Assembly: GCA_050740235.1 (NCBI GenBank)
Contig: JBOIDB010000068.1
Location: 1-62,988 of the forward strand
DNA: 62,988 bases
Reading direction: 5' to 3'
Source: Gammaproteobacteria bacterium
GTDB lineage: Bacteria; Pseudomonadota; Gammaproteobacteria; Steroidobacterales; JACDCP01
The notes beneath the pieces were generated by a model. That model did not search any database. It had not been told where the DNA came from and worked only from the letters and a program-made list of their open reading frames with translations. The position numbers were made by a program, and so were the translations under genes. Shown piece by piece: positions 8,046 through 17,806 of this stretch (positions within the stretch are counted from its first letter, which is position 1; each line of letters begins with the position of its first letter).

Positions 8046-8120
8046 CTAGCAGGCTGATGACAAACTCTGTTCTTTATCAGCCTGCCAGGTGACGCAGGGA
8101 GGGATGCATCGTCCTGCTAG
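8046..8120. repeat. Nested inverted-repeat (MITE-like) remnant between convergent genes
   Basis: Inner 10-bp IR GCAGGCTGAT (8049-8058)/ATCAGCCTGC (8076-8085); outer 8-bp IR CTAGCAGG (8046-8053)/CCTGCTAG (8113-8120). Confidence 0.5.
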
Positions 8121-8881
8121 TTGTCCAGGGTGATCGAATGCTCCCGGTCGACGCGCACGAGCACTTCCTCGACCTCTCCGTACGATTCCGCAATCTGCAT
8201 CATCAGCTCGCCTGCCCGTTTTTCCCCGTAGGCTTCGGCAAGCGCCTCATCGAACGTCTTTTCCGGCTCGGCCATGTCGGCGAAGTTCCGGTAAGGCAGC
8301 ACAAGGGTCATCAGGTAGCCGCCGGCTCCGCTGATCAGGCGGTCGAACGAGTGCGGCTCATTCCAGCTCACCTTGACCAGGCCGTCGTGAACCATCTTCG
8401 CGGCCTCGTCGAATTGTCTTTCGAAGCCCGGCTTCACGTGATAGGTGAACGCCTGGAACAGTTCGAATTGCGTGTCCTCCGGCCAGAACTCGAGCGTCTC
8501 GACGGTCTGTGAAATCCAGCTCTCGTAGGACCCGACATACTGATCGACGGTACCGAACCAGTGCTCTTCGGCCTTGCGACCGTACTCCGCATAGGTATCG
8601 AAATCCGCGAGCGTGTGACCGTCCGACCGCACCCATACGCTGTACATCCTCTCTCCGGCCAGAGGCATGTACGTCATCCAGGTCCACGTCTCGCCGTTTT
8701 CACGGCGCCAGGCTATGTGCTGCGAGAACGCCTGCATGAAGTCGTTGTACATTCCCGGCTTGATATCGAAACGCCACATTTGCGCGTAATTGTCGGACGG
8801 ATCTTCCTGCGCGAATGCCGGTGATTGCATGAGAACCAGCGCGAGCGCCGCGAAACCGGCTCGGATTGCTTTGCTGTTCAT
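8117..8881 (-). CDS. Hypothetical secreted protein with two internally repeated halves
   Basis: 254 aa; good RBS (GGGAGG); signal peptide ending PAFA; halves begin WRFDIKPG..NDF.QA and FTYHVKPG..QF.EA. Confidence 0.85.
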   Translation of the reverse strand: MNSKAIRAGFAALALVLMQSPAFAQEDPSDNYAQMWRFDIKPGMYNDFMQAFSQHIAWRRENGETWTWMTYMPLAGERMYSVWVRSDGHTLADFDTYAEYGRKAEEHWFGTVDQYVGSYESWISQTVETLEFWPEDTQFELFQAFTYHVKPGFERQFDEAAKMVHDGLVKVSWNEPHSFDRLISGAGGYLMTLVLPYRNFADMAEPEKTFDEALAEAYGEKRAGELMMQIAESYGEVEEVLVRVDREHSITLDN

Positions 8882-14245: not shown

Positions 14246-15157
14246 TCAACGCGCTGCTACCGGCGCGGCGTAGGCGATCGGCGCGGCCGACACGTCCTCG
14301 AACGTCACCTCTTCCCAGGCATCGGCAGTTGCCAGCAGCTTACGCAACAGCGCGTTGTTCAGGCCGTGGCCGGACTTGTAACCGGTGAACTCGCCGATGA
14401 GGCAGCGCCCCAGCAGGTAGAGATCTCCGATGGCGTCGAGGATCTTGTGCTTGACGAACTCGTCCTCGTAACGCAAGCCGTCCTCGTTGAGCACGCGGTA
14501 ATCGTCGAGCACGATCGCGTTGTCCATGTTGCCGCCGAGCGTCAGGTTCCTCGCGCGCAGCGCCTCGATATCGCGCATGAAGCCGAACGTGCGCGCCCGG
14601 CTCACTTCCTTGAGGAAGCTCGTCGCCGAGAAGTTCATCGTCGCCGTCTGCGAGTGCTTGCGGAACACCGGATGGTCGAAGTCGATGCGGAAGTTGATCC
14701 GGTAGCCGTTGTGCGGATCGAAGCGCGCCCACTTGTCGCCGTCCTCGACCTCGATGCGCTTCAGGATGCGGGCAAATCGCTTAGGCGCGTTCTGCATCTC
14801 GATGCCGGCCGACTGCACGAGGAACACGAACGGCCCCGCACTGCCGTCCATGATCGGCACCTCGGGCGCGCTCAGGTCGACGAACGCATTGTCGATTCCC
14901 AGCCCCGCGAAAGCGGCGAGCAGGTGCTCGACCGTCGAGACGCGAGCGTCGCCGCGCACGAGCGTCGTGCCGAGCATCGTGTCACCGACATTCTCCGCCG
15001 TCGCCGGGATGTCGACCGGCTCGTCGAGATCGACACGCCGGAAGATCACGCCCGTGTTGACGGGCGCCGGGCGCAGGGTCATGAACACCTTTTCGCCGGT
15101 GTGCAGTCCCACGCCTGTGGCGCGAATGCTGTTCTTGAGCGTGCTTTGTCGCAACAT
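14246..15157 (-). CDS. lpxC: UDP-3-O-acyl-GlcNAc deacetylase LpxC
   Basis: [39 protein letters not shown]; start could be 15157, 15160 or 15163. Confidence 0.98.
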
Positions 15158-15188
15158 CACCATTTCCGCCCGTTTTCAGGGCATGCAA

Positions 15189-15374
15189 GCCTGCCTACGC
15201 TAGCATAGGCAGGCGGTTCCTCCAACCACCTGCCGCTCGAATCAGTCCGGTCCACCGGACTGATTTGCGATACAGGGATGTATCGCCATTTTCGAGTTCC
15301 TCTCGAAAATGGAGCGAATCGGAGATCGCATCTTCGATTCGCTCGTCAAAAAAGGCATGGATGGCTTTTTTGAC
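15189..15374. ncRNA. Candidate structured RNA: array of back-to-back hairpins with GGA-containing loops (strand undetermined)
   Basis: IRs at 15189-15214, 15208-15234, 15240-15265, 15267-15286, 15286-15312, 15312-15344 and 15345-15374 (see findings); structure is directly visible, function inferred. Confidence 0.55.
15345..15374. terminator. Possible bidirectional terminator-like hairpin just after ftsZ
   Basis: GTCAAAAAAG...CTTTTTTGAC about 10 nt after the ftsZ stop; A6/T6 flanks but a weak GC core. Confidence 0.4.
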
Positions 15375-15383
15375 CATAAACAA

Positions 15384-16526
15384 TCAGTCAGCCTGGCGCC
15401 GCAGAAAGGCCGGAATGTCCAGCAAATCCTCGCCGGAGCTGCGATGCGTCACACCATCGCCGACTGCTCTCCGCTGTATGGTCGGCTTGTCCAACATAGC
15501 GTAATTCGGCTCTCCGCCCGGCGCGCGCTTGACGACCCTCATCGGCGCCTGCTGACGCGGCGAGGATGCCGAGCGGCCGAGGCCCGTCGCGACGACGGTC
15601 ACGCGGATCTGATTGCTCATCTCCGGATCGATGACCGTGCCCACCACGACGGTGGCATCGTCCGACGCAAACTCCTTGACCGTGCTGCCGACCTCCTCGA
15701 ATTCGCCGATCGACAGGTCCATGCCGGCCGTGACATTGACCAGGATGCCGTGCGCACCGGCCAGGTTGATGTCCTCGAGCAGCGGGCTCGATACCGCCGC
15801 CTCGGCCGCCTCGCGCGCGCGATCCTCGCCCGACGCCGAGCCCGAGCCCATCATCGCCATGCCCATTTCGGACATCACGGTCTTGACGTCCGCGAAGTCC
15901 ACGTTGATGAGTCCAGGCCGTGTGATCAATTCCGCTATGCCTTGGACAGCGCCCTGCAGCACCTGGTTCGCCGCGCGGAATGCATCGAGCAGCGTCGTTT
16001 CGCCGCCGAGCACGGTGAGCAGCTTCTGGTTCGGGATCGTGATCAGCGAATCGACGTATTTGCCGAGCTCGCCGATGCCCTGCTGCGCGACGGCCGTGCG
16101 CTTCGCGCCTTCCATGTCGAACGGCTTGGTTACGACCGCGACGGTGAGGATGCCCAGCTCCTTTGCGACCTGCGCGACGATCGGCGCCGCGCCCGTCCCG
16201 GTGCCGCCGCCCATGCCGGCGGTGATGAACAGCATGTCCGTGCCTTCGATGACCTCGTGGATGCGGTCGCGGTCTTCCATCGCAGCCTGGCGGCCGATGT
16301 CCGGATCGGCGCCGGCGCCGAGCCCCTTGGTAATGTTGCAGCCGAGTTGCAGCGCGGTTTTTACGCGCGCGCTCTTCAGCGCCTGCGCGTCGGTATTCGC
16401 GCAGATGAATTCGACCCCCTCGATGCCGGCATGCACCATGTGCGAGACGGCGTTGCCGCCGCCGCCGCCGACCCCGAGCACCTTGATCACAGCGTTCTGG
16501 CTGTGCCCATCCATCAGTTCGAACAT
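15384..16526 (-). CDS. ftsZ: Cell division protein FtsZ
   Basis: 380 aa from ATG 16526 (RBS GGAGA); GVGGGGGNAV, GGGTGTG tubulin signature, NVDFADV, C-terminal DIPAFLRRQAD. Confidence 0.99.
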   Translation of the reverse strand: MFELMDGHSQNAVIKVLGVGGGGGNAVSHMVHAGIEGVEFICANTDAQALKSARVKTALQLGCNITKGLGAGADPDIGRQAAMEDRDRIHEVIEGTDMLFITAGMGGGTGTGAAPIVAQVAKELGILTVAVVTKPFDMEGAKRTAVAQQGIGELGKYVDSLITIPNQKLLTVLGGETTLLDAFRAANQVLQGAVQGIAELITRPGLINVDFADVKTVMSEMGMAMMGSGSASGEDRAREAAEAAVSSPLLEDINLAGAHGILVNVTAGMDLSIGEFEEVGSTVKEFASDDATVVVGTVIDPEMSNQIRVTVVATGLGRSASSPRQQAPMRVVKRAPGGEPNYAMLDKPTIQRRAVGDGVTHRSSGEDLLDIPAFLRRQAD

Positions 16527-16576
16527 TTCAATGTCTCCTTGCGATTGGCGAGCTCTCGATCCAAAAAACGGTCGAT

Positions 16577-17806
16577 TCAGAAATTCCCCTGGAACCAGGC
16601 CTTCATGCGTTCCCAGACGTCGCGCAGGCTGCCGCTGAAGGCGTGATCGCGCGTGCGCCGGGATAAACTCTCCTGCCCGTACAGCAGCAAGCCGACGCCG
16701 GTGGCGTGAATCGGATTGCGCACCACGTCGACGAGCCCGTTGACGTGCTGCGGCATGCCGAGCCGCACGGGCATGTGAAAAATCTCCTCGGCCAGCTCGA
16801 CGGCACCTTCCATCTTCGAGCTGCCGCCGGTGATGACGACGCCGGCGGCGACCAGCTCCTCGAACCCCGAGCGCCTGAGCTCGTCGCGGATCAGCGTGAA
16901 CAGCTCCTCGTAGCGCGGCTCGACGACCTCGGCGAGGGTCTGGCGCGCGAGGCGGCGCGGCGGGCGGTCGCCCACGCTCGGCACCTCGATGGTCTCGTCG
17001 GCATTGGCGAGCTGCGACAGCGCGCAGGCGTACTTGATCTTGATCTCTTCCGCGTAATGCGTCGGCGTGCGCATCGATACGGCGATATCGTTGGTCACCT
17101 GGTCGCCCGCGATCGGGATCACCGCCGTGTGCTGGATCGCGCCGCCGGCGAACACCGCGATGTCGGTCGTGCCGCCGCCGATGTCGACCAGGCAGACGCC
17201 GAGCTCCTTCTCGTCGTCGGTCAGCACGGAGTAGGCCGAGGCGAGCTGCTCGAGCACGATGTCCTCGACGGTCAGCCCGCAGCGCTGCACGCACTTGACG
17301 ATGTTCTGCGCCGCGCTCTCGGCGCCGGTGACCATGTGCACCTTCGCTTCGAGGCGCACGCCCGACATGCCGATCGGCTCGCGGATACCTTCCTGGTGAT
17401 CGATGATGAATTCCTGCGGCAGGATGTGCAGGATCTTCTGGTCGGCCGGAATGGCGACCGCTTTCGCGGCGTCGATCACGCGGTCGACGTCGTTCGGCGT
17501 GACCTCCTTGTCGCGGATCGCCACGATGCCGTGCGAGTTGAGGCTCCGCACGTGGCTGCCGGCGATGCCGGTGAACACCGCATGGATCTCGCAGCCGGCC
17601 ATGAGCTCGGCCTCCTCGATCGCGCGCTGAATGGACTGCACGGTCGACTCGATATTGACCACGACGCCCTTCTTGAGGCCGCGCGACGGATGGCCGCCGA
17701 TGCCGATCACTTCCAGCCGTCCGGCCTCGGTGATCTCGCCGACGATGGCGCAGACTTTCGATGTGCCGATGTCCAGGCCCACGATAAGGTTCCGATCTCT
17801 AGACAT
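16577..17806 (-). CDS. ftsA: Cell division protein FtsA
   Basis: 409 aa; GLDIGTSKV, DIGGGTTD, ITGGSS, HATGVGLL. Confidence 0.99.
   Translation of the reverse strand: MSRDRNLIVGLDIGTSKVCAIVGEITEAGRLEVIGIGGHPSRGLKKGVVVNIESTVQSIQRAIEEAELMAGCEIHAVFTGIAGSHVRSLNSHGIVAIRDKEVTPNDVDRVIDAAKAVAIPADQKILHILPQEFIIDHQEGIREPIGMSGVRLEAKVHMVTGAESAAQNIVKCVQRCGLTVEDIVLEQLASAYSVLTDDEKELGVCLVDIGGGTTDIAVFAGGAIQHTAVIPIAGDQVTNDIAVSMRTPTHYAEEIKIKYACALSQLANADETIEVPSVGDRPPRRLARQTLAEVVEPRYEELFTLIRDELRRSGFEELVAAGVVITGGSSKMEGAVELAEEIFHMPVRLGMPQHVNGLVDVVRNPIHATGVGLLLYGQESLSRRTRDHAFSGSLRDVWERMKAWFQGNF

Follow-up and report, generated by a model that had tools for sequence, protein, structure and literature searches.

The MITEs (miniature inverted-repeat transposable elements) of bacteria include Correia/NEMIS in Neisseria, ERIC/IRU in enterobacteria, RUP and BOX in pneumococci and SMAG in Stenotrophomonas. 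Insertion sequences of the IS5 group make a 4-bp target duplication, YTAR. Hairpin arrays are also found in the intergenic REP/BIME/REPIN repeats with their RAYT (HUH) enzymes, and in the small RNAs (sRNAs) CsrB, CsrC, RsmX, RsmY, RsmZ and RsmV, sponges whose hairpin loops carry A(N)GGA. We analyzed a window of 62,988 nucleotides, the contig JBOIDB010000068.1 of an uncultured gammaproteobacterium (assembly GCA_050740235.1), in which a hairpin array lies in the 220-nt spacer between ftsZ and lpxC (15164-15383; both genes on the minus strand). A first-pass annotation had read the array either as a plus-strand Csr/Rsm-type sRNA antisense to the dcw mRNA or as a CsrA-bound lpxC leader. We find instead that positions 15240-15374, with a degenerate edge that extends to the ftsZ stop codon, are very probably one old and probably immobile copy of a ~170-bp non-autonomous MITE made of five hairpins.

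Spacer positions 14-117, which hold hairpins H6 to H3 (hairpins 1 to 4 of the element), recur at many loci in the same genome (G000; 2.86 Mb, 65.5% GC, 179 contigs) and in its sister species G002, with 70-76% identity. An nhmmer search found 35 loci in G000, many of them full length, and a query consisting of the canonical sequence only recovered the ftsZ-lpxC copy with an E-value of 3e-9. Generic hairpin composition as the source of this similarity is contradicted by the E-values of 1e-9 to 1e-11. End units of the element number 58 in G000, 127 in G002 and 4 in the second sister species, G001, with 0-1 for a reversed-pattern control.

The canonical copy is ~170 bp long and has the outline CTAR / CAGGNTGTTGAAAAAG-tip-CTTTTTCAAC / hairpin / hairpin / GCGRTRCATCCNTGYAYCGC / right-end hairpin ending CAACAGCCTG / CTAR. 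After the left CTAR follow hairpin 1 (CAGGNTGTTGAAAAAG CCATCCATGG CTTTTTCAAC), hairpin 2 (TTTGCGATCCGAAAA GTGTGA TTTTCGGATCGCAAG), hairpin 3 (CATTTTCAAGAAC TTGCA GTTCTTGAAAATG), hairpin 4 (GCGATGCA TCCA TGCATCGC) and, at the right end, hairpin 5 (TTAGCAGGCTGCCGAAAAAC AGA GTTTTTCAACAGCCTG), and then the second CTAR. The sequence CAGGNTGTTGAAAAA stands at both ends of canonical copies as terminal inverted repeats of 15-20 bp, and the flanks read CTAG or CTAA (CTAR) on both sides, for example CTAA...CTAA at contigs C72 and C122. Other copies are truncated or modular or lie at contig ends, and a minimal copy of 50 bp consists of end, loop and end (C78:7740-7789). When the flanks of ten G000 copies were joined and compared with G001 and G002, several aligned straight across the junction. 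At the C86 locus, the 170 bp of the element are absent in both relatives, and G001 has a single CTAA where G000 has CTAG-element-CTAA. A MITE that duplicates 4 bp of its target, as IS5-type elements do, behaves in this way; it is only the duplication that points to IS5. The 4 bp of duplicated CTAR suggest mobilization in trans by an IS5-type DDE transposase.

The four core hairpins (H6-H3) co-vary, and all five hairpins recur across at least two classes of Proteobacteria. Co-variation of the core was measured in 12 diverse copies from G000, its two sister species and two further families of the order. In this set 90.5% of stem cells were paired, against 34-48% with slid partners, and 29 of 49 pairs changed on both sides, a count matched by none of 500 shuffles. 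The end hairpin H2 lies outside the alignment (A1) and the model (R1), and its recurrence was judged by eye and by minimum free energy folding of fetched copies. A metagenome scan in which the stem of hairpin 1 was the only fixed part, its 10-nt tip being free to vary, found at least 120 contigs, and a covariance model built from the 12 copies gave 41 unique full metagenome copies among the matches listed, to which the counts of metagenome copies below refer. Applied to 401 genomes of the phylum, the model matched 43 genomes (20 of 234 genera), most of them in another class with genomes of 2-3 Mb. The 60 copies fetched from these phylum matches (the other-class set) differ in their ends and stems and share the same plan. 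Neither the canonical nor the other-class copies match an Rfam family.

If the positions that the scan had fixed are left aside, hairpins 1 and 4 have nearly invariant tips, which are the most conserved non-terminal sites of the element. In the 41 metagenome copies, TCC in the tip of hairpin 1 is 95-98% conserved and C-N-T-C-C-N-T-G in the tip of hairpin 4 is 97-100% conserved; in the other-class set TCC is kept in 54-55 of 60 tips. These tips, CNTCCNTG on the forward strand, read CANGGANG on the opposite one, which is the plus strand of the window. For hairpins 1 and 4, respectively, CANGGANG is present in 36/41 and 39/41 metagenome tips and in 34/60 and 46/60 other-class tips, and it almost never occurs on the forward strand. 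A single copy among the 60 (L353, G235:C46, ~831-947) has the tip of hairpin 1 flipped (GCGCATGGATGCGC), with GGA on the forward strand. The GGATG of the left end itself was considered as a shared transposase motif and rejected: that position varies by subfamily (CAGGNTG), whereas the tips do not.

The contact consensus of RsmE/CsrA is A/U-CANGGANG-U/A, and the consensus obtained by systematic evolution of ligands by exponential enrichment (SELEX) is RUACARGGAUGU (PMC6849547). The fixed and free positions of the element tips coincide with the former. The hairpin 4 consensus of one large subfamily, GUACAGGGAUGU, equals the latter at 12 of 12 positions (17 of the 41 metagenome copies). The CsrA-like tips are real, and they are conserved family-wide on the strand that the first-pass annotation had named, the plus strand of the window.

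The two strands of the element also differ in how they tolerate mismatches. Near-identical copies have private single stem mismatches that are strand-neutral (18 vs 23). In diverged copies, stem cells that are not Watson-Crick pairs form G.U far more often on the GGA-tip strand than on the other, with 104 vs 35 cases for the metagenome copies and 117 vs 72 for the other class; slid controls are at ~1.1:1. Counted by alignment column, the ratios are 20 vs 6 and 25 vs 12, respectively. The GGA-tip strand folds better in 36/40 metagenome and 44/60 other-class copies. It follows that the fold is maintained in a single-stranded form of one of the two strands, whether as RNA or as DNA. We know of no report of strand-asymmetric G.U tolerance for MITEs.

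If that molecule is RNA, the family could be a mobile CsrA/RsmA cassette, in which the two CANGGANG tips of a reverse-strand RNA would clamp a CsrA dimer and the copies would act as dispersed sites or as sponges, the ftsZ-lpxC copy being one such unit antisense to the dcw mRNA. We consider this quite unlikely. It would account for the tips being the most conserved sites outside the ends and for their agreement with the RsmE/CsrA and SELEX consensus sequences, as well as for the wobble tolerance and better folding of the GGA strand, and it fits with the lack of any detectable CsrB, RsmY or RsmZ in G000. However, the orientation relative to co-directional gene pairs is unbiased in three samples (the mRNA strand coincides with the GGA strand 20 times and with its opposite 29 times; gene calls were crude, from open reading frame (ORF) length and GC content at third codon positions). 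Moreover, no internal promoter is predicted in the element, each element has just two GGA sites ~90 nt apart, and in the G002 orthologue of the ftsZ-lpxC copy the GGA of H6 is lost and H3 has an A.C on the GGA strand. The strand asymmetry, finally, fits single-stranded DNA equally well. Presence of csrA in 41 of 42 carrier genomes of the phylum, and in 5 of 7 carriers of the own order, only fails to refute binding by CsrA; the carriers cluster in few clades, and the figure may reflect phylogeny only. No csrA is detectable in G001 (88% complete), which has almost no copies of the element (4 weak end units), or in G079 (81% complete, 16 end units); both are incomplete metagenome-assembled genomes (MAGs), so the absence is weak. 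Two carriers in another class whose genomes are complete single contigs (G159 and G195; 2,301,665 and 2,537,610 bp) have three csrA paralogues each.

Reading of the tips and G.T-tolerant stems on one strand of DNA is the other way to explain the asymmetry. The element would then move or be maintained as single-stranded DNA, like IS200/IS605 derivatives or REP/REPIN sequences with HUH enzymes, and the two flanking CTAR would consist of target and element end rather than of a duplication. Strand-asymmetric wobble and tip conservation that have no link to the direction of gene transcription would follow from this, as would hairpins that co-vary across classes, and the missing DDE partner would cause no difficulty. 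Yet clear inverted ends of 15-20 bp and the minimal 50-bp copy are typical of DDE MITEs, no GTAG-type tag is present, and no HUH gene was found linked to the element, though none was searched for. On balance this explanation appears unlikely, although it deserves some weight. REP/BIME repeats resemble the element in being intergenic hairpin repeats with mosaic arrangements, co-varying hairpins and strand-specific recognition. The element differs from them in having no GTAG/CTAC-tagged palindromes of 20-40 nt; it has CTAR and CAGG ends and forms a 170-bp composite with flanking repeats.

Several observations weigh against a MITE. Strand-asymmetric G.U tolerance would not be expected of an element that is cut and pasted as double-stranded DNA. 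A search of 8 carrier genomes and 88 metagenome loci, all from fragmented MAGs, gave no autonomous element that shares these ends. Two DUF772 transposase genes in G000 were rejected as the parent, having different, unrelated ends (GGCTTCCGAGGCTGTGAGAGA), and pairs of element ends 0.7-3 kb apart were rejected as a parent transposon, as they enclose ordinary genes. The ftsZ-lpxC copy itself has no visible clean inverted ends and no CTAR duplication of its own. It keeps five near-perfect hairpins despite ~27% divergence, and several of its differences from the G002 orthologue are compensatory, which fits selection on the fold, or templated correction of palindromes, better than plain decay. The likeness to the IS5 family consists of CTAG/CTAA on both sides and a single CTAA at the empty site; in contrast, no transposase gene with the ends of the element was found, and IS5 ends are unrelated in sequence.

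A MITE nevertheless remains our preferred reading, and the copy in the window can be followed hairpin by hairpin. Re-reading of the sequence confirmed all letters and coordinates given in the first-pass annotation. On each of its strands the spacer forms six hairpins, one directly behind the other (z -8.0 and -10.7 vs shuffles), the plus-strand fold being 6.7 kcal/mol better than that of the minus strand, and five of the six belong to the element, which lies on the minus strand. Next to ftsZ, 15375-15386 comprise the ftsZ stop codon (TGA, 15384-15386) and 9 nt of degenerate left end, where the G002 orthologue still has CAGG. Hairpin 1 (H6; 15345-15374) consists of the left-end repeat and its local complement, with one C.C / G.G stem mismatch. 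Its apex on the plus strand is CATGGATG (15356-15363), the tip being CAUCCAUG on the minus strand and CAUGGAUG on the plus strand. Hairpin 2 (H5; 15312-15344) has a 15-bp stem that differs from the canonical one yet is paired, with one A.C on the minus strand that is a G.U on the plus strand. In hairpin 3 (H4; 15287-15311) the base CATTTTC/GAAAATG is conserved and the top and loop are variable.

Hairpin 4 (H3; 15267-15286) reads GCGATACA-GGGA-TGTATCGC on the plus strand, also written GCGAUACA-GGGA-UGUAUCGC (-10.5 kcal/mol, z -7.2). Its tip is CAUCCCUG on the mRNA strand and ACAGGGAUGU on the plus strand and holds an exact SELEX 12-mer: plus-strand positions 15270-15281 are ATACAGGGATGT, at the GGGA-looped tip of the 8-bp hairpin. 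Hairpin 5 (H2; 15240-15265) is a shortened, diverged remnant of the right-end hairpin that keeps the outer CAG.C...G.CTG; this assignment is based on an nhmmer alignment that reaches model position 142 and on comparison with canonical copies. The plus-strand tips of H3 and H6, which the first-pass annotation had singled out, both fit the CsrA/RsmE consensus. In the 2.86 Mb of the genome the exact 12-mer RTACARGGATGT has two sites, where 0.43 would be expected; both (C68:15270, which is the one in the window, and C23:3997) lie in the same repeat module, within hairpins of one kind.

No other full copy in G000 is as diverged as the one at ftsZ-lpxC, which has ~72-74% identity to the canonical element. 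In the orthologous spacer of G002 the element occupies the corresponding position, immediately behind the ftsZ stop codon. Its H6 tip has become CCCTGCTTGG in that species, with GGA on neither strand, its H4 is decayed, and its H3 retains UCCC/GGGA, a G.U being present on the mRNA strand. The G001 spacer is unrelated and GC-rich and lacks the element, only the lpxC-proximal ~64 nt being conserved. Of the loop GGAs, whose conservation in orthologous spacers the first-pass annotation had made a test of its reading, the GGGA of H3 is retained in G002 but the GGA of H6 is not, and G001 has no element at all. Because the G002 spacer holds the element and the G001 spacer is unrelated, the element appears to have landed in the common ancestor of G000 and G002, where it would have inserted upstream of the lpxC promoter, with the ftsZ stop codon immediately before it. 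The CsrA-like sequences are the two conserved tips of the element, very probably present through transposition and not through evolution of an sRNA gene at this place.

The plus-strand sRNA gene of ~130-160 nt, antisense to the dcw mRNA, that had been proposed for this locus is very improbable. In its favour are a loop that matches the SELEX consensus exactly, a second such tip, CAUGGAUG, at the apex of a hairpin with T6 behind it, and the better folding of the plus strand. The csrA gene that it presupposes is also present and intact (C177:11677-11832, PF02599 at 86 bits; a 73-aa protein, MLILTRR...VHREEIY). However, the sequence is a dispersed repeat found at ~35 loci, absent from the G001 spacer and decayed in G002. 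The TTTTTT is at 15366-15371 as claimed, but it pairs with A6 as the 3' arm of H6 and leaves no free tail; no terminator was called there. A consensus scan found no promoter or terminator on either strand of the spacer, and no GacA box (TGTAAGN6CTTACA) lies near the locus at up to 3 mismatches. In Rfam searches of the locus, an RsmV fragment scored 13.4 bits against a cut-off of 100, and CsrB, RsmY and RsmZ gave nothing. Five GGA sites are present on the plus strand (15257, 15276, 15311, 15321 and 15359), of which only those of H3 and H6 are in loops, the other three being in stems or junctions. A density of 5 per 130 nt is unremarkable, at about the top 6% of loosely non-coding windows.

Compared with the Csr/Rsm sponge RNAs, the element shares hairpin loops with A(N)GGA, its tips being CANGGANG with a full SELEX 12-mer at the locus, in a genome that has csrA. 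It is unlike them in being multi-copy and mobile rather than a single regulated gene, in having two GGA sites instead of 4-22, in lacking a GacA/UvrY box, a promoter and a clear terminator, and in its Rfam scores far below the cut-off. A 19.6-bit RsmZ-like match elsewhere in G000 was rejected as GC-rich, coding-like DNA. Upstream of csrA itself (L001, C177:11477-11680), the leader contains several GGA (AAGGACTAAGGAAAAG...CAAGGAGAUG) just before the start codon, as expected for autoregulation. Note that the GGA-richest non-coding stretches of the genome lie outside the window and consist of tandem units of ~21-23 nt (GAGAGGCGGGACGACGAGGGA / CCGGGACGACGAGGGGAGCTTGCG) with two GGGA per unit (C15:28581, C97:6821, C118:54181, C149:6391 and C116:191). 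A separate repeat family, AAATGGGGACATTCCTGATTT, is found at C101:8041, C72:49531 and C79:18871.

We also consider it extremely improbable that the array is a CsrA-bound lpxC leader, in which GGA in minus-strand loops (AGGAA in H4, UGGA in H2 and GGAGG in H1) would control lpxC translation. GGA does occur in these three loops, and the H1 region is conserved in the genus. However, the loops of H4 and H2 are conserved neither in G002 nor in the family, and the tips that the family conserves show UCC on the mRNA strand. The GGAGG of H1 belongs to an lpxC-proximal block outside the element (15164-15227, minus strand) that alignment shows to be conserved in all three species of the genus. On the minus strand this block has TTGGAG (15225-15220), a 17-nt spacer and TGCTAGCGT (hexamer at 15202-15197), all kept in the three species; judged from these motifs, it looks like a putative lpxC promoter, with TTGGAG as the -35, an extended -10 and then a short leader. 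The conserved TTGGAGG would thus fit a -35, 17 nt from the extended -10 and upstream of the likely transcript start, which argues against its use as a leader site. A similar extended -10 motif, TGnTAnnnT, is found at the same distance from lpxC in relatives, and many Steroidobacteraceae-like relatives have TGTGGTACCTT at that distance. The consensus promoter scan of the spacer did not call this putative promoter either.

As the element lies between the ftsZ stop codon and the lpxC promoter, it would be transcribed on the mRNA strand only by read-through. Minus-strand read-through RNA from ftsZ and the dcw cluster is most likely the only RNA of the element at this locus, and it would display UCC rather than GGA tips. 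In such RNA the element might at most form a structured 3' region, serving as an exonuclease barrier or partial terminator, or it might be neutral. Compatible with a MITE origin, though rather unlikely, is that the copy has been domesticated as an RNA element that stabilizes the ftsZ 3' end or attenuates read-through into lpxC. Five near-perfect hairpins at ~27% divergence and the compensatory differences between G000 and G002 speak in its favour. On the other hand, G001 does without the element, H4 has decayed in G002, and the spacer, at 220 nt, is of ordinary length compared with relatives (median 205 nt).

A possible parallel to such a function is Xoo8 (Rfam RF02243), a Xanthomonas sRNA, which matches 15085-15397 on the minus strand with 50.8 bits (E 3e-13) against a cut-off of 90 bits. 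The match is limited to the coding ends, the ftsZ C-terminus and the lpxC N-terminus, with the middle unaligned. This suggests that the Xoo8 of Xanthomonas includes, on the mRNA strand, the spacer between ftsZ and lpxC with some of the coding sequence on its sides; judged from the two ends of the model, it would share genomic position and mRNA-sense strand with the element, from which it differs in matching at coding ends only and below the cut-off. If Xoo8 does span the same spacer, a stable sense RNA exists here in relatives, which would speak for a domesticated element.

For the locus, interpretation as a MITE copy is deflationary: the array beside two essential genes would be transposon debris rather than a new regulator that acts on cell division or lipid A synthesis. 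For the family, we describe a MITE that keeps a conserved hairpin architecture and two CsrA-consensus tips on one strand in at least two classes of Proteobacteria. Like the known bacterial MITEs, it is short, non-coding and dispersed in intergenic DNA, has inverted ends and short flanking duplications, shows lineage-specific bursts, empty sites in relatives and modular or truncated copies, and would fold strongly when transcribed. Unlike them, its core H6-H3 is kept by compensatory change and two near-invariant tips equal the CsrA consensus; no sequence similarity to the named families was seen. Should CsrA bind the tips, transposable elements would be spreading post-transcriptional control sites or sponge units among csrA-bearing Proteobacteria. 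The family would then be the first transposable element known with binding sites for a global post-transcriptional regulator, and a candidate CsrA antagonist for lineages without a known Csr/Rsm sRNA. Should the tips instead be read on single-stranded DNA, the family would represent mobile elements of a new, hairpin-dependent kind that have inverted ends.

The surrounding genes are those of the end of a dcw cluster, ftsA-ftsZ-lpxC, followed downstream by an M23 peptidase gene. On the minus strand, lpxC occupies 14246-15163 (TIGR00325, 412 bits), its product sharing at most 80% identity with those of Steroidobacteraceae-like MAGs, and the 3' part of ftsZ occupies 15384-16600 (TIGR00065, 432 bits). 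The true start of ftsZ is upstream of 16600, and the listed ftsZ ORF continues into the ftsA frame. A 62-aa ORF that spans the spacer gave no match in a family search. The window contains a second, internally deleted copy of the element (8046-8125, minus strand), composed of a left-end remnant, an H3-like hairpin (CGATGCATCCCTCCCTGCGTCAC) and a right-end hairpin ending CCTGCTAG. Elsewhere, ordinary genes lie between two inward-facing copies or ends 0.9-1.8 kb apart, as at L165 (G002:C33:4599-5489), L204 (4280-5741) and L189 (1110-2926). Such pairs could allow composite mobilization of the genes that they bracket.

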